A stretch of 40,212 nt of DNA, from the IMG/VR virus record IMGVR_UViG_2541047498_000018; one strand, 5' to 3'. Position numbers and translations under genes: made by a program. The notes below the pieces were generated by a model that did not search any database, was not told where the DNA came from, and saw only the letters and a program-made list of their open reading frames with translations. Positions 1 to 40,212 of this stretch are shown piece after piece; positions within the stretch are counted from its first letter, which is position 1; every line of letters begins with the position of its first letter. This DNA comes from a virus (lineage: Duplodnaviria > Heunggongvirae > Uroviricota > Caudoviricetes).

Positions 1-1
1 T

Positions 2-376
2 ATTGAAGGGGCTTACGAGGTGGTGGGCGTTTTTGACCGGATAGAGGAGAAGCGTGATGCCATGCAGTCGCTGGTCCTGCCGCAACCGGCACGCCAGGCG
101 CTGGCACAGGCGGCACTGACTTACCGTTATGGTGACGAACATCAGCCCGTCACCACCGCCGACATTCTGACGCCGCGACGCCGGGAGGATTACGGTAAGG
201 ACCTGTGGAGCGCATATCAGACCATCCAGGAGAATATGCTGAAAGGCGGGATTTCCGGTCGCAGTGCAAAAGGAAAACGTATCCATACCCGGGCCATTCA
301 CAGCATTGATACCGACATTAAGCTCAATCGCGCATTGTGGGTGATGGCAGAAACGATGCTGGAGAGCCTGCGCTGA
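2..376 (+). CDS. Partial CDS (3' end) of a flanking genomic-island gene; hypothetical protein, possibly DUF932-like
   Basis: Reading frame is open from the window start to the stop at 374-376 (track ORF 20..376 is its in-window part). It sits outside the prophage end, on the same strand as the antirestriction gene on the other flank. Confidence 0.5.
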   Translation: MEGAYEVVGVFDRIEEKRDAMQSLVLPQPARQALAQAALTYRYGDEHQPVTTADILTPRRREDYGKDLWSAYQTIQENMLKGGISGRSAKGKRIHTRAIHSIDTDIKLNRALWVMAETMLESLR

Positions 377-490
377 TGCCGTTTCCCTGAGTGAGGGAAT
401 CATTCAGCTTTCGTTCCCGAAAAACACACATTTATTTGTTATTTAAGGAGTTATCTCATGAAAACCGTTTCTCAGAATATATAGCGCGGC

Positions 491-1799: not shown

Positions 1800-2116
1800 C
1801 AATCTGTAAAAACTTGCATCAATGCTTTACTTCGAGCTCGTGGCGTATCCTATGATATTCCCCGGTCTCCTGTAAAGCAGAGATGCATAAAAAGGAGATC
1901 TTTATCATGGATGAAAGAGCCTGTTTGCCCTGCCTGTAAGACTCCCTTACAGCTCATCTATCGCCGTTCTCGATCTCAAAATGGCAAGACATACAAACCC
2001 AAAAATGCTTCCTGTTTCAGGATGCTGATATGTCCTGCCTGTTCTCCCAGGAGGGAAAATACACAAAACGTGCATTAACAAACTCACCCGGCAGGGAAAC
2101 CTGCCGGTCGGTATTG

Positions 2117-2362
2117 TTACATCATAGTACCGTCAGTTCCGGGCTGAACCGGCTCTGGTTGCTCTACGGGTTGAGGATCATTTTCCGTGCTGTTTTCAGC
2201 CGGAGAACGGCCAACCATTCGGGCCAGCACTTCATCAACATATGCGTCGATTTGTGCCTCAAAATCCTTGCGAACCTGCGCCTTCAGCACGCGGTTCACT
2301 TCTTCAGAATAAAGTGCCTGTTTGACAAGCTCTTCAGTAACCGTGCCTTTAATCTCTGGCAT
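2117..2362 (-). CDS. Hypothetical protein (81 aa, acidic, Pro/Glu-rich C-terminus), cargo module
   Basis: ORF co-oriented with and downstream of the esterase gene. No family recognised. Confidence 0.4.
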   Translation of the reverse strand: MPEIKGTVTEELVKQALYSEEVNRVLKAQVRKDFEAQIDAYVDEVLARMVGRSPAENSTENDPQPVEQPEPVQPGTDGTMM

Positions 2363-2397
2363 GAATATTCTCCTTTTGCAGGTATATTGCCCCGTTA

Positions 2398-2580
2398 TCA
2401 GAGCGGGGTCGGGTCGTTTGGGGATGACGGTGCCTGTGCTGTTTTACTGAGTTTTTCAGCTGCCGCATCATCAATTTTACGGCGAATATAATTTCTGATG
2501 ACCTTATAACCACCGCTCACCAGATATAACGCACTGACCACAGCGCAGAAATAAAGCAGCATTGTATGAACGAATGTCAT
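2398..2580 (-). CDS. Hypothetical small membrane protein (60 aa), cargo module
   Basis: N-terminal hydrophobic segment LLYFCAVVSALYLVSGGY followed by a basic stretch. Co-oriented within the cargo module. Confidence 0.4.
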   Translation of the reverse strand: MTFVHTMLLYFCAVVSALYLVSGGYKVIRNYIRRKIDDAAAEKLSKTAQAPSSPNDPTPL

Positions 2581-2726
2581 ATAACCTTACCTTTGATATT
2601 GACTACATAATTCGTTATCGGGTAAAAACATCGAAGCGACTGATAACCACTCCTTCGGGAGTATTTTTATTTTCCTTTATGGGTTAGGTAGCTCCCGCCA
2701 GCCATATCATGACCGGCGGGATTTTT

Positions 2727-4766
2727 TTATTCTGTTACCGCTTTTTTCACTTCCACCACAATGCTGTCAATCAGCACCGGGTAAGTTGCATTTTTTGTGA
2801 TATCCGTTACGCGGAGTTTGTCCACCGGGAAAGTTCCTACTGGTGACTGCGTCAGGGTAAACGCGGCACCATCCTGACCATCAATAACCGGAATAACCTG
2901 AAGGCTGTTATTTCCTGCAAAACGGAAGGCCAGCGTATGCCATTCATTATCAAATGCACCAAAGGTTCCCAGTTTCTGGTTATTTGTTGCCACTTTTGCA
3001 TTGTGGTACATCACATTCAGGTCTTTTGCGTCTGTCTGGATGTAGAACGATGCCAGCAGATTATTCCCTGCATCCCCTGTCAGGGTGACACCCTGCGGCA
3101 GAGAGGAAACCGGCCAGTAAAGCCCCATGACATACTGGTTTGCCACCAGGTCGCCAGGTACTTTAAAACGACAACTGATTAAACCACCATTTTTCAGCAG
3201 TTCAGCACCAGTACCGGCATCATGATCCAGATACCAAGATGATTTACCTGTTTCCTTGGTCAGTTTCATTGCCTTACCACCTGTGCCTCCTGCATCACTG
3301 ATAATTTCAGCTTTACCGCCAGCCGGCTCCCAGCCCTGGGCTTTCAGATTTCCTTCTGACTCACTGACACGATAAGACAGCAGTGTTGTGGTTACTGCTT
3401 CAGTTTCTGAAGGTGACGGCACTGGTGCTTCAGTTTCAGAAGATGGAACATCGGCTTTTACTGTGGTTCGCCCCGCATGAGTCAGAACTGCCGTGGCCAG
3501 ACGGTCGGAAATAATCCCACGACGTGCCCATGAACTGAAATGGCTGGCCCGGTCCGCAGATGTCCAGGTGGCGGCACTGTTACGCCACGTTGAGCCGTAA
3601 TAACCAATGGATTCAATATCCGGGTCTTCTGCCGGATTGTTGGTGGGTACATTCGCGTCATTTTCATCTGTCATTAATGGAACGAAATGAATGTTTTTAT
3701 CTGTTTTGTTTTTGTAGCCGCCATAGATTGCCTGGTATGCCGGTTCATTTTTCTGTTTCCAGAAATACGTGGTATCGCCACAAATCCACGGAACGCCAGC
3801 AGCACTGCCACCGGTACACTGTTCCGCCTGTTCAGCCAGGTCTGCGCGGAATTTTTCCACCATCGCCAGAAACAGCGCGGAATGCTCCGTCGGCTTCGCA
3901 TCAATATCAAACTCGCCCTGCATCCACACCACAGCAAGCAGGCGGTTTTTCGGGTTCTTCGCCAGTGCCGCTTTTGTCCGGCTGATTAAGTCCTTATACA
4001 GCGGCTTATCCACACCCCAGCGGGCTGAGTCCTCTGAAGCACCCGTGCTGTCACTGTACGTGCCGTCAGCACCCGCCGTGAATGCAGAACCACCACGGCA
4101 GCAGGGAACCAGCAGAATCCCCGCATCTGCCGGAATAAACGGCAGCAGTTTTTTGGCAATGTGAAGCCCCTGACCCACGGTGCCATATTGCCCTTTAGCC
4201 ACATCCGCTTTCGGGTGATTTTTTCCACTCATATCCTGCACATCATGCAGACAGTGGTCGGCCAGAATGATGTCGTTATACTGACAGGCTTTACCTCCCG
4301 GCGTGACTGTACTGCGACGGGCTAACTGCATAATACGCGGTTCGGGGCGGTCATATGTCTCCGGCAGTGGCAGACCTTCACCGTAAGCCATACCGTTTGA
4401 CTGACCAGCAAGAACCACCACGTAATACCAGGAAGGGGAGCTGGAAGCAGTTTCATTTCCTGACGGACGGGTATGTGTTTCAGCATTATCCCAGTCTGAC
4501 GGTTCAGCAGTACCGGCAACATCAGCACTTAACGGAATGACCGCACCAATACCCGCTCCGGTAATTTCCACACTCGGATCACCGGATACTGGCCTTACCC
4601 ACAGGCAATCCCGTGTATTAAAACTGATGAGACAGTCAGCAAATGTCATTCCTCCTTTTGTTTCGGCCGGAGGAAAGGGAGCCTCAAGAAATGCCGCTGT
4701 ACCACCGGAAACTTTAACAGTAAAGTTTCCGGGCATTGATGATAGTTGAACCCATTTGGACGTCAT
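2727..4766 (-). CDS. SASA/SGNH-family carbohydrate O-acetylesterase (NanS-p-like sialate O-acetylesterase) with C-terminal lectin-like domain
   Basis: 679-aa ORF with VVVLAGQSNGMAYGEG (the GQSN nucleophile motif of SASA esterases), a Ser/Thr/Pro/Glu-rich linker (SETEAPVPSPSETEA) and a roughly 250-aa C-terminal domain. This three-part layout matches prophage NanS-p esterases as recalled. Confidence 0.75.
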   Translation of the reverse strand: MTSKWVQLSSMPGNFTVKVSGGTAAFLEAPFPPAETKGGMTFADCLISFNTRDCLWVRPVSGDPSVEITGAGIGAVIPLSADVAGTAEPSDWDNAETHTRPSGNETASSSPSWYYVVVLAGQSNGMAYGEGLPLPETYDRPEPRIMQLARRSTVTPGGKACQYNDIILADHCLHDVQDMSGKNHPKADVAKGQYGTVGQGLHIAKKLLPFIPADAGILLVPCCRGGSAFTAGADGTYSDSTGASEDSARWGVDKPLYKDLISRTKAALAKNPKNRLLAVVWMQGEFDIDAKPTEHSALFLAMVEKFRADLAEQAEQCTGGSAAGVPWICGDTTYFWKQKNEPAYQAIYGGYKNKTDKNIHFVPLMTDENDANVPTNNPAEDPDIESIGYYGSTWRNSAATWTSADRASHFSSWARRGIISDRLATAVLTHAGRTTVKADVPSSETEAPVPSPSETEAVTTTLLSYRVSESEGNLKAQGWEPAGGKAEIISDAGGTGGKAMKLTKETGKSSWYLDHDAGTGAELLKNGGLISCRFKVPGDLVANQYVMGLYWPVSSLPQGVTLTGDAGNNLLASFYIQTDAKDLNVMYHNAKVATNNQKLGTFGAFDNEWHTLAFRFAGNNSLQVIPVIDGQDGAAFTLTQSPVGTFPVDKLRVTDITKNATYPVLIDSIVVEVKKAVTE

Positions 4767-24468: not shown

Positions 24469-26123
24469 CCCCGATCAAATTCATGATATGCCTCATCGTC
24501 ATCACGATAACCGCCCTCCATGGCCCGCGACCGCTCCGGCAGCGCCTGGCAGGCTGATTCATCCAGGATAAAGCCCTCCATGTATGACGCCCGGTTTGCC
24601 ATACAGAGCGCCACGGCAAAATCACCATGGCGGCGGGCGTTCACAGCTGTTGCGTTCTGGTCCTTCGTACGCCCCTTGTCGATTTGCGGGATACCGTTCA
24701 CCACCTTCACATGGCGCAAATCATCAAGCGTGGTCTGATGGCGGGCGACGAGGATATTCTGATCCTCAAACTCGGCCTTCAGTTTTGGCATCCACTCGCC
24801 GTACCACTTCGGCGATAACATCACGCAGTCGATGATGTCCGGGCCAAAGGCCAGCAGCGCGGCTTCGGCCAGATAGCCGCCGTTACCGGTGGCGTCGAAC
24901 GCCGCACCGACCAGCGCCGGAACGCGGGTCAGGATGTACATCATCACCTGCTCCTGCTGGGCATACGGCAGGTTGCGCAGCTCCACGCGAAACACCTCGC
25001 GTTTTGCCAGGGATTCAGTGATTTCCAGCAGCACAAAGCAGGAGAGGTCACCGGTGCGGGCAAAGTCTTCCCCGAAGCTGAAGCGGGAACGGGGATTTAA
25101 CGCCTCTAAAAGCGGTTTTAAATGTTCTTCACACCAGGTTAAAACCTCCGATTCACGCAGCCATGCGGCACGGCTGATGAAGTCGTCCGGGGCTTCAAAC
25201 GTCAGAATCGGGATGTCGCGGATCATCGCCATTTCAATAAGCGCGTGAGGAATATAGGCACCGCCGGATTTTTTCGGGATACAGCCGTATTCCTCGTCGG
25301 CATCCTCACGGGTCGGGGCGTTTTTGTAGAGATCATCACGCCACTTCTGCTCGCTTTCCGGTGACCATTCGCGGCCGGTGACATAACAGATACGACGGTA
25401 CAGCCCGTCCGCAATGGCATCATCCAGGGTTATGCGGTGGACACTGTAATCCTTGCGTCCCTCGCGGGCTTCCTGAATGTACTGATTAAACAGATTATCG
25501 ACGCCGTTATGCGTGGAGATAATACGCACGCGCGCGCCCCACATGGTGAGCGCCATTGCCGCCTTGAGAAGCTCATCCAGTGACTCGTGGAACGCGGCTT
25601 CATCAATCACCACATCCCCCTGAAGGCCGCGCAGGTTTGACGGACGGGAAGACAGTGCCTGAATTTTGAATCCACTGTTCGGAAAGCGGATCATGTAGGT
25701 CAGAATTTCTTCTTTTTTATCCCGATCCCAGAAGGTCTGCTCATACACATCAGCATCGGCCAGCTGGTTAAAGGCACGGGAGAACAGTGCGCAGGCAGAA
25801 ATATATTCCAGCGCCATCTCCTGCTTTGACCCCACATAAAACACATTACGGCCACCACGACGCTTAGGCTTTGCGGCGGTAATGACGTTACGCCCGGCTT
25901 CCGCCCAGGTAAGCCCGGTGCGGCGGGATTTTTCCGCGATGCAGACCTCACTTTCATCCTCAAACCAGCGGGCCTGATAATCCAGAAACACCGGCATATC
26001 ACCGGGCAAATCAAGGCTGTCCGGCACATCCACGCCCAGCAGGGCTTTTTCACCGGCCAGATCAATTTTGCGGGTGGAGACGGTATTCGTCAGTAAGGGG
26101 GAGAGTTCTTCGGCGTTATTCAT
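24459..26123 (-). CDS. Terminase large subunit (Mu gp28-like)
   Basis: 554-aa ORF between the small terminase candidate and the portal gene, at the Mu gp28 size and position. Confidence 0.8.
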   Translation of the reverse strand: MNNAEELSPLLTNTVSTRKIDLAGEKALLGVDVPDSLDLPGDMPVFLDYQARWFEDESEVCIAEKSRRTGLTWAEAGRNVITAAKPKRRGGRNVFYVGSKQEMALEYISACALFSRAFNQLADADVYEQTFWDRDKKEEILTYMIRFPNSGFKIQALSSRPSNLRGLQGDVVIDEAAFHESLDELLKAAMALTMWGARVRIISTHNGVDNLFNQYIQEAREGRKDYSVHRITLDDAIADGLYRRICYVTGREWSPESEQKWRDDLYKNAPTREDADEEYGCIPKKSGGAYIPHALIEMAMIRDIPILTFEAPDDFISRAAWLRESEVLTWCEEHLKPLLEALNPRSRFSFGEDFARTGDLSCFVLLEITESLAKREVFRVELRNLPYAQQEQVMMYILTRVPALVGAAFDATGNGGYLAEAALLAFGPDIIDCVMLSPKWYGEWMPKLKAEFEDQNILVARHQTTLDDLRHVKVVNGIPQIDKGRTKDQNATAVNARRHGDFAVALCMANRASYMEGFILDESACQALPERSRAMEGGYRDDDEAYHEFDRGCW

Positions 26124-26704
26124 CAGGCTTTACCCAACAGAATTCCCTTAATACGGGACTCAAGCTGTTCACTCATCCCGTCCACGCCGCGCAGCTCGTC
26201 GGTAACCGCGTTTGCCATCTCTTCAGCAAATGCAGCCCGGATTTCTTTTTCACGTTTAATGCTGCGCTCGGCGGCACTTTCCGCACGCTGTGCTGACAGG
26301 AGGATGTCCTTAATAAGACGCATATCCACGTCGCTGTCACTGTTCAGGGATTCGGTCGCGGCACGCAGACGGCGGTACATCAGGGCGCGGGACATCTCCA
26401 GAATCAGTGCCGTGGTTTCACCGGTCGGCTTGTCCCCCAGTTCGGCCATCATGGCTTTTGTCTGCTCGCGTAAATCACGCAGGTTACGGGCAATCAGCTC
26501 ATTACGGGAGGCTTCCCGGCTGATGGCCGCCGGTGAAAGCTGCTGCTCTTCCGGCAGGCCTGCCTCGCGGATCAGACGGTTGATTTCCTCGCGGATCTGG
26601 ACCTGCGTCAGACGTTTTTCACGCAGCATTTCCAGCAGTGGCTTACGGATGCTGTCGGGGAGCAAATCCACCTTGCGCACGCGGCCACGCGTCGGCTTGT
26701 CCAT
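26123..26704 (-). CDS. Candidate terminase small subunit / DNA-binding packaging protein (Mu gp27-like)
   Basis: 193-aa ORF immediately upstream of the large terminase gene. Charged, helical sequence. Confidence 0.5.
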   Translation of the reverse strand: MDKPTRGRVRKVDLLPDSIRKPLLEMLREKRLTQVQIREEINRLIREAGLPEEQQLSPAAISREASRNELIARNLRDLREQTKAMMAELGDKPTGETTALILEMSRALMYRRLRAATESLNSDSDVDMRLIKDILLSAQRAESAAERSIKREKEIRAAFAEEMANAVTDELRGVDGMSEQLESRIKGILLGKA

Positions 26705-26706
26705 CG

Positions 26707-26997
26707 CTACCCCCTTGCGCGTGGTTTCTTCACACCCGGAACGGTGGCGCGGCCTTCCGCCACATCCTGACCCCGGCCGGTCAGTTCAGCGATGAAATAA
26801 CCATTAACGAGCGTGCGCTTACGCACCAGCCCCTGCTCGGCAAGCCAGGCAATATGAGTATGAACGGTGTCGCGGGACACGCGGTGACCGTAATCATCCA
26901 GACAGTCCTGGAGCACGGATTCACCCAGTTCGCCGTTGTAATCCGCCAGCGACCGCAGAATGACAAGACGCTGATCTTCAGTAATGAAATCACTCAT
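26707..26997 (-). CDS. Hypothetical protein, possible winged-helix DNA-binding fold
   Basis: 96-aa ORF tightly packed upstream of the small terminase candidate. Fold guess only. Confidence 0.4.
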   Translation of the reverse strand: MSDFITEDQRLVILRSLADYNGELGESVLQDCLDDYGHRVSRDTVHTHIAWLAEQGLVRKRTLVNGYFIAELTGRGQDVAEGRATVPGVKKPRARG

Positions 26998-27302
26998 TGT
27001 GTTTTTTTCCTTACCGCCTGCTCCAGCAGCAGTTCGTTCTGATAGGAGACAGAGCGGAGCGTGGCGTTCGTGGTTTTCAGTTCACCCCGCAGGGTCACGA
27101 TTTCCACATTCAGACGGTTGACCTCGGCTTCTGTCGGCAGTGACGACAGGCGGGTTTCCACCTTCTCAACGCGGTCGGAGAGTTTTTCAAAGGCCTCGCG
27201 GGGGACAAACGTTTTGCGCATCAGCGCCATGAATATCCCGCCAGCGGTTGCCGTCGCCGAAAGGATCGGCACAACATAATCTTTAACGATGCTGACCCAC
27301 AT
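26994..27302 (-). CDS. Hypothetical membrane protein with N-terminal transmembrane helix and coiled coil
   Basis: 102-aa ORF with hydrophobic segment VVPILSATATAGGIFMALM and a charged helical C-terminus, next to the lysis cassette. Confidence 0.45.
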   Translation of the reverse strand: MWVSIVKDYVVPILSATATAGGIFMALMRKTFVPREAFEKLSDRVEKVETRLSSLPTEAEVNRLNVEIVTLRGELKTTNATLRSVSYQNELLLEQAVRKKTQ

Positions 27303-27510
27303 GACGGGCCTCCATGATGTTCTGGCAGTTCACACAACGGATGGCATCCGGCACAGCAACAAGACGTGCGGCGGGGATCTCTCCGCCACAGTCCGCGCAG
27401 ACACGTCTGCCCGGAGCATCCATTGCCCGGCGCTTACGTGTCAGCCGGTTACAAAGGGCGCGTTCTGATCCCCGCTCCATCACAGCCTGAGCACGATCTG
27501 AATCATCCAT
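27283..27510 (-). CDS. TraR/DksA-family C4 zinc-finger protein
   Basis: CADCGGEI...(17 aa)...CVNCQ pattern at the C-terminus. Start assigned to the ATG giving MDDSDRAQA...; the track ORF extends upstream to 27576. Confidence 0.65.
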   Translation of the reverse strand: MDDSDRAQAVMERGSERALCNRLTRKRRAMDAPGRRVCADCGGEIPAARLVAVPDAIRCVNCQNIMEARHVGQHR

Positions 27511-27520
27511 ACCTTTTTCC

Positions 27521-27892
27521 TTACTTCGTCTTTCCTGCCGGAACAGCAGGCGTTCCGGCCATATCAGTAAATTCATGTTGTCGCCGCGCCTCCAGACGAC
27601 GAATACTGGCCTTGTCCACGTTGCAGTTCTTGATCACCGCCAGCAGTTGCAGGTTGTAAGTGACCGATGCCCCAAACGTGAACGGCTCCGGCGCAGGAGG
27701 GACCAGGCAGTCAGCCAGCCATTCAGCGGGGATCGGCACCGGCTTCACAGGCACGTATTTCACAGACGGCCCGGCGCACCCGATCAGCCACATCATCAGG
27801 AACAGGGGCAGAGGCCGCAGGCACTGCCTCCAGCGACCGGCGGACAACGCTCTGCTGCCCCTCGCTGTGCTGAATGTTCTGTTGTTTTTCAT
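27521..27892 (-). CDS. Candidate o-spanin (outer-membrane lipoprotein) overlapping the i-spanin frame
   Basis: Alternate frame within and past the i-spanin candidate encodes LFLMMWLIGCAGPS (a lipobox-like LIGC) followed by a Pro-rich sequence. Start uncertain. Confidence 0.3.
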   Translation of the reverse strand: MKNNRTFSTARGSRALSAGRWRQCLRPLPLFLMMWLIGCAGPSVKYVPVKPVPIPAEWLADCLVPPAPEPFTFGASVTYNLQLLAVIKNCNVDKASIRRLEARRQHEFTDMAGTPAVPAGKTK

Positions 27893-28223
27893 TCGTGGCC
27901 GCCTCACTGATTTGTGAAATGAGTTGCAGGGTGTGCTGCTGATTTGCCAGCACCTGACGCGCCTCATCCCGCTCACGCACAAGCACCTGATTATTGTCTT
28001 CAAGGCGCTGCGTCTTCTGGTGCATTCCCCATATAGCGGCAACCAGTACAGCGATAATCCCCAGCGCCGCCATGCACGCCCCGGCAATCAGGGCCGGTAA
28101 GGCATTATTCACCGCAGCCACAGGACACCCCGTAACAGCAGTACCGCACACAGCAGCGCTATCATGAGCGGTCGCCAGAAGCGGTTCAGACTTTCGGCAA
28201 GTCGTAGCGACATAACCATTCAT
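27723..28223 (-). CDS. Candidate i-spanin (Rz-like): transmembrane helix plus periplasmic coiled coil
   Basis: ORF immediately downstream of the endolysin gene with hydrophobic segment ALPALIAGACMAALGIIAVLVAAIW and a Gln/Glu/Arg-rich helical region. Start uncertain. Confidence 0.4.
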   Translation of the reverse strand: MNGYVATTCRKSEPLLATAHDSAAVCGTAVTGCPVAAVNNALPALIAGACMAALGIIAVLVAAIWGMHQKTQRLEDNNQVLVRERDEARQVLANQQHTLQLISQISEAATNEKQQNIQHSEGQQSVVRRSLEAVPAASAPVPDDVADRVRRAVCEIRACEAGADPR

Positions 28224-28686
28224 CCGCCGAACGGCGGGCCTCAAGGCCGGGGAGTTTCACCCCCTTTGAATAAATCCAGCGGATATACTGCTTACAGGAC
28301 GCGGGCATCTGCCCGGCATTGATCAGGCGCAGAAGCGTGGAGTTGCGAAAGTTCGTTTCACCGGCCCAGAAGATCCACGAAGCCAGCGCCACCGTCTGAC
28401 CACGGGTAAGCGGCACCTGAACACGCCGATCAATGGCCGCAAAGGCCCATTTCATGTCCTTTTCCAGTAGTTCCAGGCATTCTTCATCTGTCAGGGTCAT
28501 ACCCGGTTTCACATCCGGGCCGGTATGGCCGTAACAGATGGTGGGTGTACCGGTGGGATCGATATACGTGGAGTTTTCTTTCCCTTCCCAGTAACCGGTG
28601 TAATGCGTGGCAATCGTGAACGTCCCGGCACCGGCCAGAACAAGGGCAATCAGCTTTTTACGCAGTGGTGCGGGGAGTTTTGGCAT
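28186..28686 (-). CDS. lys: SAR endolysin (T4-lysozyme-like muramidase with N-terminal signal-anchor-release domain)
   Basis: N-terminal Gly/Ala-rich weakly hydrophobic segment LIALVLAGAGTFTIA, then E...D...T spacing in EGKENSTYIDPTGTPTICYGHTG typical of the lysozyme catalytic triad. Confidence 0.8.
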   Translation of the reverse strand: MPKLPAPLRKKLIALVLAGAGTFTIATHYTGYWEGKENSTYIDPTGTPTICYGHTGPDVKPGMTLTDEECLELLEKDMKWAFAAIDRRVQVPLTRGQTVALASWIFWAGETNFRNSTLLRLINAGQMPASCKQYIRWIYSKGVKLPGLEARRSADEWLCRYDLPKV

Positions 28687-28757
28687 TGTTACGCTGTCTC
28701 ATGATGTTCTCTGAGTCAGCGTAACGGTGAAGGAGAGGCGGCAGGCTTTGCGGAATA

Positions 28758-29183
28758 TCAGAAAAGTGGCGGTTGCGTTCTTACCAGATGCAGACGGCGC
28801 TGTTCGCGTATGACGGTATAAATCTGGGTTTCTGACATCCGGTAATGGCGGCGAAGGGATTCAATTTTCTCGCCCCGGTCCCAGCGCGAAAATATCTCAT
28901 TGTTTCGCAGCTCGGCAAAGAGAGATTCCCCGACCGGCAGGTAATAACCCCGTCCGCCCATATAGGCGGCCTGAGCCGCAGCCACCTTGCGTGCCAGTTT
29001 ACCGGCCAGTACCGGCTCAATCCCCTGACGCTGAAGTTCTGCGCCGGTGACTTCAACCAGTTCTGACAGGGTCCGCGGCCAGTTCTTTTTGAGAACATCA
29101 TCAGGGATGTCATCAAGGCGGTCGATAAGGGCGTGCAGTTGCTCACTGTCACCACCAAACATGCTCATCTGAGTTTCTGCCAT
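28758..29183 (-). CDS. mor: Mor/C-family transcription activator (middle/late gene activator)
   Basis: 141 aa with YMGGRGYYLPVG and a C-terminal HTH (MSETQIYTVIREQRR), matching the Mor/C family as recalled. Located between the GemA-like gene and the lysis genes. Confidence 0.7.
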   Translation of the reverse strand: MAETQMSMFGGDSEQLHALIDRLDDIPDDVLKKNWPRTLSELVEVTGAELQRQGIEPVLAGKLARKVAAAQAAYMGGRGYYLPVGESLFAELRNNEIFSRWDRGEKIESLRRHYRMSETQIYTVIREQRRLHLVRTQPPLF

Positions 29184-29252: not shown

Positions 29253-29762
29253 TTAACGGGGAAGTGATTTTTCATACTGCCTGCAAACGGCGTCATACCC
29301 CATCAGCGTGCGTTCGGGCATTCCCATCGCGGCCAGCATTTTGCGGCGGTGCCATCGCTTGAGACGCTCCAGCACATCTGAGGCCAGGGCGGGGTGTTGC
29401 TCCAGCCACTGCCAGTTTGCCACACCTTCGCCGCCGTTCTGCGCGGCCGTCTGCGATTTCACCCAGCGGTTAAGGGCGGTTTCCGCACCATCGGTGATAA
29501 AGCCCTGCCGGTGCATCACCTTCCAGATGGCGCGAATTTTGGCGGTCACCGTACCCGGTTTTAAGGCCCGGTTAACCGGGTTCTGACGCACTTTAAAACC
29601 GCGTTTTTTGAAAACATCCAGCACGCGGGATAACTCATCCGGTGACATATCCCGGCAGCTGGTTTTGCCGGTAGCTGCCAGCAGCGCGGATGTATAAGTC
29701 TCATCATCCAGGGCAAGCTCGCGCTTTGCCACATGAATGGCGGATATCAGTTTTCCTCTCAT
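29253..29762 (-). CDS. GemA-like regulatory protein (Mu gp16-like, DUF1018-like)
   Basis: 169-aa ORF directly upstream of the Mor/C-family gene, the position of gemA in Mu. Confidence 0.5.
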   Translation of the reverse strand: MRGKLISAIHVAKRELALDDETYTSALLAATGKTSCRDMSPDELSRVLDVFKKRGFKVRQNPVNRALKPGTVTAKIRAIWKVMHRQGFITDGAETALNRWVKSQTAAQNGGEGVANWQWLEQHPALASDVLERLKRWHRRKMLAAMGMPERTLMGYDAVCRQYEKSLPR

Positions 29763-30055
29763 ACCGTATTTACCTTTTTACGGACATGGAAAGCCTTTTC
29801 TGCCTCATCCCACCGGGCATGGTGTGTTGGCGGAATAATCATTATGTGCCAGCCATCTCTGCTTGTTATTCGGCAGAAAAATTCACCGTTATATAACACA
29901 ATGGCCTGCTGAATGAGCGCATCAGCCGCCCGTTCAACCGGATGTCTTTTATCAAAAAAGCAGATGATTTTTCGACATAACCACCGGGTAATAACAAATG
30001 CGCCGAAAAAGGATGTGATATATAAGCACCAGAACAACAGAGAACTATTGTCCAT
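29759..30055 (-). CDS. Hypothetical protein with N-terminal hydrophobic segment
   Basis: 98-aa ORF in the tightly packed early operon (LLFWCLYITSFFGAFVI). Confidence 0.4.
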   Translation of the reverse strand: MDNSSLLFWCLYITSFFGAFVITRWLCRKIICFFDKRHPVERAADALIQQAIVLYNGEFFCRITSRDGWHIMIIPPTHHARWDEAEKAFHVRKKVNTV

Positions 30056-39572: not shown

Positions 39573-39747
39573 TCAATCCGTAGTATCAAAAGTTTTGCCG
39601 ATTTTAGAATAAACGATTAATTATTGCACAATCGGTATCAAATAGACTTTAAGCGCTCATCCAGACATCACCTGTTTTATTTCAGTATCTTACAGGTGAT
39701 TTCACCTCCTTTCACTAAAACCCTCGTTGGTATCAAATGATTCACCT
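39573..39747. repeat. Left-end (attL-side) transposase-binding repeat array, three spaced GTATCAAA sites inverted relative to the other end
   Basis: AGTATCA at 39582-39588, GGTATCA at 39634-39640 and 39729-39735 (reverse complement of TTGATACC). Wide spacing resembles Mu L1-L3. The terminal site GGTATCAAATGATTCA resembles the Mu L1 core in reverse complement. Confidence 0.6.
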
Positions 39748-40212
39748 GGTTACAAATACCCCCACAATTTATTCAGCTACAACACCAGAGAATAATCCGC
39801 CTCAGTTGGTTGCCAGCCTCGTCCCTGATGAACAGCGCATCAGCTTCTGGCCGCAGCATTTTGGCCTCATTCCACAGTGGGTCACCCTGGAGCCCCGTGT
39901 CTTCGGCTGGATGGACCGTCTGTGCGAAGACTACTGCGGTGGTATCTGGAATCTGTACACCCTGAACAACGGCGGGGCATTTATGGCCCCCGAACCGGAT
40001 GATGATGATGACGAAACATGGGTACTGTTCAATGCCATGAACGGTAACCGCGCTGAAATGAGCCCGGAAGCCGCCGGTATTGCCGCCTGTCTGATGACGT
40101 ACAGCCATCATGCCTGTCGTACGGAGAATTATGCCATGACGGTCCATTATTACCGGTTGCGGGATTACGCCCTGCAGCATCCGGAAGGCAGCGCCATTAT
40201 GCGCATCATTGA
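39737..40212 (+). CDS. Partial CDS: antirestriction protein (KlcA/ArdB family, YfjX/YafX-like); 3' end beyond the window
   Basis: Plus-strand frame is open from the ATG at 39737 to the window end. Translation ...WPQHFGLIPQWVTLEPRVFGWMDRLCEDYCGGIWNLYTLNNGGAFMAPEPDDDDDETWVLFNAMNGNRAEMSPEAAGIAACLMTYSHHACRTENYAMTVHYYRLRDYALQHPEGSAIMRII matches CP4-type island antirestriction proteins as recalled. The in-frame ATG lies inside the terminal repeat, so the native start is uncertain. Confidence 0.7.
   Translation, partial: MIHLVTNTPTIYSATTPENNPPQLVASLVPDEQRISFWPQHFGLIPQWVTLEPRVFGWMDRLCEDYCGGIWNLYTLNNGGAFMAPEPDDDDDETWVLFNAMNGNRAEMSPEAAGIAACLMTYSHHACRTENYAMTVHYYRLRDYALQHPEGSAIMRII

Follow-up and report, generated by a model that had tools for sequence, protein, structure and literature searches.

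A lysis cassette resembling that of phage Mu, with a candidate releasin, in a Mu-like prophage of Shiga-toxin-producing Escherichia coli

Introduction

Does the phage whose genome is held in IMG/VR record IMGVR_UViG_2541047498_000018 lyse its host without a holin, and which of its proteins would then set the endolysin free? The window analysed here is the whole stretch of 40,212 nucleotides (nt) of that record. The original prediction had placed at positions 27521-28686 a lysis cassette made of an endolysin with a signal-anchor-release (SAR) segment plus an overlapping candidate spanin pair, and had named a 102-residue transmembrane (TM) protein encoded at 26994..27302 as a candidate holin or releasin. 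The open reading frames (ORFs) were found exactly at these coordinates, all of them on the minus strand because the prophage is annotated in reverse orientation. Sequence comparisons indicate that the region is very probably a cassette of late lysis genes from an intact prophage of the transposable, Mu-like kind, and that it most likely works as the holin-less system of Mu does. The cassette is built like the known one of phage Mu and is ordinary apart from a small, conserved and unannotated gene that would encode a membrane peptide. The original prediction gave neither the strand nor the exact start codons, and did not notice this small ORF. Its features are as follows.

28186..28686, minus strand: SAR-type endolysin (predicted), GH24 muramidase, 166 residues, orthologue of Mu gp22
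28109..28213, minus strand: unannotated ORF for a hydrophobic peptide, 34 codons (36 if started at ATG 28219)
27723..28121, minus strand: i-spanin, Rz-like, 132 residues from GTG 28121, orthologue of Mu gp23
27521..27892, minus strand: o-spanin, Rz1/LysC-like lipoprotein (predicted), 123-residue precursor, orthologue of Mu gp23.1
27283..27510, minus strand: TraR/DksA-type C4 zinc-finger protein, 75 residues, in the position of Mu gp24
26994..27302, minus strand: DUF2730 protein, candidate releasin, 102 residues, orthologue of Mu gp25

Correspondence with the lysis genes of phage Mu

The cassette ORFs were searched against the protein families of Pfam, PHROGs and NCBIfam, and their matches in Pfam and PHROGs were far beyond chance. 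In the re-annotated Mu record, gene C and the C-activated late promoter are followed by gp22, labelled 'SAR endolysin', by gp23, labelled 'i-spanin', and by an 'o-spanin' gene that overlaps it and has the lipobox LTGC; gp24, gp25 ('releasin'), gp26 and gp27 come next. The proteins of the window pair one-to-one, and in identical order, with Mu gp22, gp23, gp23.1, gp24 and gp25, the pairing with gp24 being weak. The flanking genes could be paired as well.

Endolysin with Mu gp22: 39% identity, E=1e-32
i-spanin with Mu gp23: 27% identity, E=7e-7
o-spanin with Mu gp23.1: 40% identity, E=2e-14
Zinc-finger protein with Mu gp24: weak similarity, E=0.04, same position in Mu
DUF2730 protein with Mu gp25: 35% identity over 91 residues, E=4e-17
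Next gene with Mu gp26: 63% identity, E=4e-40
Next gene with Mu gp27: 57% identity, E=5e-74
Upstream activator with Mu C: 40% identity, E=3e-32
Upstream activator with Mu Mor: 27% identity, E=3e-13

In Mu, gp22 is a SAR endolysin, gp23 and gp23.1 are the spanins, and there is no holin (Chamblee et al. 2022, mBio, PMC9239132). The genes of the window are ordered as in Mu after a C-type activator, and they share several other traits with their Mu counterparts: a GH24 endolysin with an E-D-T triad and an uncharged, weakly hydrophobic N-terminal segment directly preceded by basic residues; overlapped i-spanin and o-spanin genes; a small zinc-finger gene, after which comes the gene of a DUF2730 protein of full length that has a TM segment at its N-terminus and an RR/RK junction; and the absence of a recognisable holin.

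The endolysin

The endolysin matches Pfam Phage_lysozyme (6e-37) and the endolysin family PHROG 7 (8e-51). Its catalytic triad, E34/D43/T49 (Glu-8aa-Asp-5aa-Thr), was invariant in 7 homologues and aligns with the annotated E37/D46/T52 of Mu. The protein begins with MPKLPAPLRKK, followed by LIALVLAGAGTFTIAT. We predict a cytoplasmic tail formed by M1-K11, which includes R9, K10 and K11, and a SAR-like segment formed by L12-T27. This segment of 16 residues carries no charge, and Gly, Ala, Ser and Thr make up 56% of it, as compared to 62-65% in the corresponding segments of Mu and R21. When hydropathy was averaged over 19 residues it remained below the Kyte-Doolittle cut-off of 1.6, whereas the TM segments of the i-spanin and of the DUF2730 protein exceeded it. 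Sub-threshold hydropathy is how the Mu paper describes SAR domains (PMC9239132). The Gly/Ala-rich N-terminal segment that had been read from the sequence was thus confirmed by its composition, its lack of charge and its low hydropathy.

The closest solved structure was PDB 3HDE (E=1.2e-24), which we take to be the full-length SAR endolysin R21 of phage 21. The alignment starts at residue 5 of the window protein and includes the N-terminal segment; the likeness to R21 (3HDE/3HDF) thus spans the SAR segment itself, one of the aligned rows being PAPLRKKLIALVLAGAGTFTIAT. Together with the homology to Mu gp22, an experimentally demonstrated SAR endolysin, this alignment upholds the earlier claim, and the assignment of the protein to the SAR type is well supported at the level of sequence. 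Unlike phage 21, which has the S21 pinholin, the window has no pinholin gene beside its endolysin and has a homologue of the DUF2730 releasin instead. Lyz of phage P1 is regulated by a disulfide mechanism; since the SAR segment contains no Cys, a switch of this type is not expected here. In Mu, gp22 is not released unless gp25 is present, a requirement that stems from Lys6 and Lys7 (PMC9239132). The place of these two residues, K6 and K7, is occupied in the window endolysin by R9, K10 and K11.

The spanin pair

The raw open frame of the i-spanin extends over 27723-28244, the gene itself being shorter (27723-28121). The frame matches PHROG 214 'Rz-like spanin' (1.3e-32). Its TM segment, at about A7-W31, is the strongest of the region (Kyte-Doolittle 2.6-2.7), and Cys residues are found at positions 16, 120 and 125. 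A single-sequence AlphaFold2 model (mean pLDDT 86) comprises a helix from 2 to 99, a Pro-rich linker from 100 to 108 and a second helix from 109 to 126. The modelled succession of a TM segment, a long periplasmic helix, a Pro linker and a C-terminal helix is the layout of an i-spanin. The TM segment and helical character ascribed to this protein by the original prediction therefore hold; its location 'immediately downstream' of the endolysin does not, for a gap of about 65 nt, holding the conserved small ORF, separates the two genes.

The start codons of both spanins were compared among relatives, which fall into three clades by endolysin identity: E. coli (100%), a clade at about 83% that includes Citrobacter braakii, and a clade at 67-70%. 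L078 is a further relative, of 64% identity. The best-supported start of the i-spanin is GTG 28121. It is preceded by a conserved GGGGTG (GAGGTG in a more distant clade), and it aligns with an ATG of the Citrobacter-type clade and with the GTG chosen by a gene caller in the 70% clade (L075). Other starts were considered. At ATG 28223 several relatives have ACG, and a frame opened there is at odds with the pattern of substitutions; GTG 28151, the start given by PGAP, is less likely than GTG 28121. A frameshifted i-spanin, which might account for the labels 'endopeptidase' and 'hypothetical' in near-identical genomes, was rejected since these gene models differ by a single residue without any frameshift.

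The raw frame of the o-spanin (27521-28087) is likewise longer than the gene (27521-27892). It matches Pfam LysC (Rz1-like, 5e-16), PHROG 3001 (8e-42) and PHROG 456 (2e-17). The predicted lipobox, L36-I37-G38-C39 (LIGC), is replaced by LTGC, LSGC or LTAC in relatives. The mature part would consist of 85 residues, of which 11 are Pro, with Ala (not Asp) at position +2; Cys residues are present at 39, 62 and 90. In all four clades, including the 64%-identity relative, an ATG lies exactly 38 codons upstream of the lipobox Cys, with GAGG, AAGG or CAGG 9 nt to its 5' side. By this conservation the start is ATG 27892. An alternative start at TTG 27847 was discarded as not conserved. RefSeq/PGAP starts lysC at GTG 27763 (27521-27763, 80 residues), downstream of the Cys39 codon (27776-27778), and the annotated protein is therefore deprived of its signal and of its lipidation site. 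The annotation of the pair in RefSeq is thus in error, the i-spanin being called 'hypothetical' or 'endopeptidase' and the o-spanin being truncated.

The two genes overlap by 170 nt in different frames, and the o-spanin gene extends 202 nt past the stop of the i-spanin, which is the overlapped architecture, as in Mu. The earlier description of an overlapping frame with LIGC followed by a Pro-rich part was accurate, as attested by the LysC match, the lipobox conserved in four clades and the Pro content. As in lambda Rz/Rz1 and P2 LysB/LysC, a helical inner-membrane protein with an N-terminal TM segment is predicted to act with a short Pro-rich outer-membrane lipoprotein. Rz1 of lambda is embedded within Rz; unlike in lambda, the window genes are overlapped and the lipoprotein signal is unusually long. 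This signal of 38 residues (28 in Mu) is also unusual in its long and very basic n-region.

The DUF2730 protein as a candidate releasin

Downstream of the spanins, the zinc-finger protein (raw frame 27283-27576) matches Pfam zf-dskA_traR (8e-12) and, above the cut-off, TIGR02419 (7e-22). The next protein matches DUF2730 (PF10805, 7e-20) through nearly its whole length, residues 6-97 of 102 aligning with positions 3-101 of the 102 positions of the profile, and PHROG 736 (9e-32). Hydropathy places an N-terminal TM segment at about V10-M28, followed by an R29-K30 junction and a predicted cytoplasmic domain of 74 residues. DUF2730 proteins occur in Mu-like phages at most five genes away from the endolysin, and have an N-terminal TM segment and an RR/RK junction motif (PMC9239132). 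Counted from the endolysin onwards, the DUF2730 gene comes third among annotated genes (fourth if the small ORF is included), and the prophage has a transposase, GemA and Mor. All the sequence-level features by which type I DUF2730 proteins were defined (PMC9239132) are found in the protein. Given its full-length DUF2730 domain and its similarity to Mu gp25, the founding releasin (PMC9239132), we infer that 26994-27302 encodes the releasin, which sustains the second of the two roles that had been proposed for it; the dependence of the endolysin on this protein would follow from the case of Mu.

On these grounds lysis may proceed as follows, the steps of tethering, release, releasin dependence, lipidation and spanin action being modelled on the experiments made with Mu. 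A Mor/C-type activator would switch on the late transcript. The endolysin, like Mu gp22, would be exported by the host Sec system without being cleaved, and would remain inactive, its weakly hydrophobic SAR segment tethering it to the inner membrane and R9, K10 and K11 retaining it there from the cytoplasmic side. The membrane-anchored DUF2730 releasin would then promote the exit of the SAR segment from the bilayer, upon which the freed endolysin would refold into its active form and degrade the peptidoglycan. The i-spanin in the inner membrane and the o-spanin, as a lipoprotein of the outer membrane, would bind each other by their C-termini in a complex spanning the periplasm, and would disrupt the outer membrane after the wall has been degraded.

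For Mu gp25, a serine-protease-like model and an acidic-microenvironment model have been raised (PMC9239132). The window homologues differ from Mu gp22 and gp25 in traits that are critical to such models, namely a SAR segment with few Gly and a basic, His-free cytoplasmic domain, and they offer a cheap test of them. If the DUF2730 protein does work as a releasin, its basic, His-free domain would argue against both models for gp25.

Prophage setting and distribution

A query made of the lysis cassette (26900-28800) showed 100% identity with chromosomes from E. coli O157:H7 and from related isolates of cattle and humans, and 99% identity with segments labelled 'inserted Bacteriophage Mu-like phage' in two records of Stx-converting phages. 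The region was found in 231 of 5426 complete E. coli genomes, at up to four places per genome. The identity in many genomes, the multiple copies and the insertions into Stx phages together imply recent transposition. A RefSeq stretch of strain F1273, chosen as the counterpart of the window, holds a full Mu-like prophage in reverse orientation. Its genes encode a helix-turn-helix protein of the repressor region, the Mu transposase, an AAA ATPase, Gam, GemA and one Mor-family protein. Also annotated there are the lysis genes and Mu gp27, the genes of the head and of the tail, an invertase, and com and mom. At both ends of the window (1-453 and 39745-40212) lie incomplete fragments of a gene for an ABC-transporter ATP-binding protein. 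With these halves on its two sides, the prophage sits inside a disrupted host gene, as Mu-type transposition predicts. The O157 strain Sakai carries a Mu-like prophage, Sp18, possibly that of the window, which was judged intact (PMC2669165).

A releasin system of the type reported for Mu in 2022 is thus present, and apparently intact, in a widespread and recently mobile prophage of Shiga-toxin-producing E. coli (STEC). The cassette, very probably a holin-less lysis system of the Mu type, comes from a STEC prophage family that is well known, and contributes little in itself.

The search for a holin

None of the cassette ORFs matched a holin family in Pfam, PHROGs or NCBIfam, and no multi-TM protein was detected by hydropathy among the annotated prophage genes. 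Only three annotated genes encode a convincing TM segment: the i-spanin, the DUF2730 protein and a protein of 98 residues from the early region (29759-30055, minus strand). The last of these, encoded just upstream of gemA, has an N-terminal TM segment, SLLFWCLYITSFFGAFVIT, and no match in Pfam or NCBIfam. The only unassigned membrane ORF inside the cluster is the one of 34 codons, which has a single hydrophobic stretch. Holins and pinholins usually have at least two TM segments and 60-150 residues, are expressed late, are encoded in the lysis cluster and kill the cell when the membrane is depolarised. The statement that no classical holin could be recognised was therefore borne out, in agreement with the demonstrated holin-less state of Mu.

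A conserved small ORF between endolysin and i-spanin

In Mu, the start of gp23 falls within the final part of gp22; in the window, the 34-codon ORF stands between the endolysin and i-spanin genes. The peptide that it would encode is MSLRLAESLNRFWRPLMIALLCAVLLLRGVLWLR. The ORF shares 28 nt with the 3' end of the endolysin gene and 13 nt with the start of the i-spanin gene, its TGA stop lying 10 nt past GTG 28121. It is open in the three clades, which agree in its start region, its length and the position of its stop. It was intact in 86 of the 88 instances of the locus, the exception being a single contig that was counted twice and that has an extra A in a run of AAA. In this contig (L030/L067, IMGVR_UViG_2526164665_000023) the extra A lies just before the endolysin stop, at the equivalent of about 28190; it would join the small ORF's hydrophobic part in frame to the endolysin, and is probably a homopolymer sequencing error.

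Twenty-one codons of the small ORF are free of other genes. In this stretch the numbers of variable sites at codon positions 1, 2 and 3 were 13, 10 and 19. The difference between positions 3 and 2 (19 versus 10 of 21) gave p=0.006 in a Fisher test, whereas a chi-square test over the three positions gave p=0.22. The pN/pS ratio was lowest in the small-ORF frame in all six pairs of clades (0.28-0.63, as compared to 0.65-2.7 in the other frames), and the replacements preserve hydrophobicity. A second frame of the spacer is also open in all clades, without a coding-type pattern of substitution. No conserved RNA structure was detected in the spacer (z-score of -1.47 for the single sequence, consensus of -7.6 kcal/mol, zero covariation).

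The small ORF had no family match in Pfam, PHROG or NCBIfam, and the exact peptide was absent from a collection of 15 billion proteins. In a HMMER scan of 1.84 billion representatives the sole relative was one gene call of 34 residues (P0088), a Citrobacter-type version. When IMG/VR and metagenome contigs were searched with peptide patterns, together with the 1.84-billion library, only the three clades were recovered, along with this gene call and two repeat artefacts. A scan of genome contigs in which the endolysin, not the small ORF, served as query gave one Citrobacter braakii locus. The small ORF is absent from the 64%-identity relative and from Mu, and in both of them the ATG of the i-spanin overlaps the endolysin stop. 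Neither the peptide nor 'Sp18' is matched in the supplements of the ribosome-profiling (Ribo-seq) study of Sakai small genes. An origin by duplication of the i-spanin TM segment, the o-spanin signal or Mu gp20 was rejected, as the similarity to each was not above that of shuffled controls.

From its substitution pattern we consider that the small ORF is probably translated. In the minimal reading it may serve to couple translation of the i-spanin to that of the endolysin, a role suggested by the overlap of its stop with the i-spanin start. A bolder and rather unlikely proposal is that the peptide is a new lysis-timing factor of a 'holin-less' phage, which would either perturb the membrane as a minimal trigger or act with or against the releasin or the SAR segment, and which is present in one Mu-like sub-lineage and missing from Mu. 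As a candidate extra component, this conserved small membrane ORF is the sole element of the cassette that might repay work.

Alternative explanations

Several observations weigh against a cassette that works as that of Mu does. The lysis proteins share just 27-40% identity with their Mu counterparts. The SAR segment has 2 Gly, whereas that of Mu has six in a run of seven residues, and the need for a releasin could therefore differ. The cytoplasmic domain of the DUF2730 protein is net basic and without His (11 acidic, 14 basic and 0 His residues), unlike that of Mu gp25 (12 acidic, 11 basic and 2 His). In the PROSITE rule for lipoproteins the Cys is expected within residues 15-35, and the lipobox Cys of the o-spanin, at position 39, falls outside this range. 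The small conserved TM ORF could be an unrecognised membrane-active lysis factor; this phage would then be miscalled 'holin-less'. It is also conceivable, and very improbable in our view, that the endolysin begins with a Sec signal peptide of the ordinary, cleavable sort and is a soluble periplasmic protein controlled by other means. The n-region and h-region layout and the small residues A18-G19-A20 would suit a signal peptide; however, the AGA motif comes after just six hydrophobic residues, the segment resembles those of Mu gp22 and R21 in its richness in Gly, Ala and Thr and in its weak hydrophobicity, it aligns with the retained N-terminus of 3HDE, and the enzyme is homologous to an experimentally established SAR endolysin and co-occurs with a releasin homologue. 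A decaying, non-functional cassette in a defective prophage is just as hard to credit. Many O157 prophages are indeed defective (PMC2669165), but the cassette ORFs are all intact and under conservation, the annotated prophage carries a full gene set, and the distribution described above points to recent transposition; Sp18 of Sakai, possibly this prophage, was judged intact as well.

The other explanations concern the small ORF. The spacer might be open by chance or by base composition, its conservation coming from the endolysin 3' end and from the ribosome-binding site of the i-spanin; we find this somewhat unlikely. ATG 28213 and ATG 28219 both lack a strong Shine-Dalgarno sequence in front of them, the ORF is overlapped at both ends by other functional sequence, the Arg-Gly and LWL codons that never vary fall on the Shine-Dalgarno sequence and start of the i-spanin, gene callers almost never call it, another frame of the spacer is likewise open in all clades, and a free stretch of 21 codons makes for thin statistics (chi-square, p=0.22). 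Yet in that stretch the third positions vary most and the second least, pN/pS is lowest in this frame in every pair of clades, the replacements remain hydrophobic, start, stop and length are retained at 30% endolysin divergence, and conserved RNA structure does not explain the conservation of the spacer. If the ORF is a gene, its product (28109-28213), or less likely the 98-residue protein, might be a pinholin-like or depolarising trigger of the SAR endolysin, the phage not being holin-less and the DUF2730 protein being an accessory. In favour of such a trigger, the peptide is hydrophobic, and its ORF is located within the late lysis cluster and is conserved in three clades with coding-type substitutions; release of SAR endolysins through membrane depolarisation is established in other phages, and Mu, the phage shown to be holin-less, has no such ORF. 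However, the peptide has 34 residues, which to our knowledge is smaller than any characterised holin, and one short hydrophobic stretch broken by Arg28. No holin family was matched by it, the conserved RGVLWL is encoded where the i-spanin has its Shine-Dalgarno sequence and start codon, and the close relative L078 and Mu both retain DUF2730 yet have no small ORF. The 98-residue protein, for its part, is located in the early region, upstream of gemA. We therefore regard a trigger of this kind as improbable, and retain a Mu-type system, with the DUF2730 protein as candidate releasin, as by far the more probable reading.

Activator, promoter and neighbouring genes

The cassette is bordered by the following features.

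29253-29762, minus strand: GemA gene (Pfam)
28758..29183, minus strand: Mor/C-family transcription activator (Pfam Mor, 1e-31)
28687..28757, minus strand: intergenic region between the activator and endolysin genes, 71 nt, presumed late promoter
26123-26704, minus strand: Mu gp27-like gene (Pfam)

The activator gene lies directly upstream of the endolysin gene, and its product is closer to Mu C than to Mu Mor. In Mu, gene C directly precedes lys and activates Plys (Mu record annotation). By analogy, the product of 28758-29183 is presumed to activate the late (lysis) promoter, and the intergenic region 28687-28757, from its position and its analogy with Mu Plys, is presumed to be this activator-dependent promoter. 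No sigma-70 consensus promoter was found around the cassette, as expected if the promoter depends on an activator. An Rfam scan of the whole window gave no matches. A terminator-like hairpin (29248-29225) lies between gemA and the Mor/C gene. Unlike Mu, the prophage lacks homologues of gp18-gp20 and has a single Mor/C gene; these two features and the hairpin suggest a simpler regulatory cascade than the early-middle-late one of Mu.

At some distance from the cassette, between the invertase and com/mom, RefSeq annotates on the minus strand (about 2093-4742) genes of the families DUF6645 (2703-4742), DUF1378 (2374-2556) and DUF826 (2093-2338). Genes of the DUF1378 and DUF826 families are typical of lambdoid Stx prophages, and for this reason the stretch looks like an accessory block acquired by the Mu-like genome.

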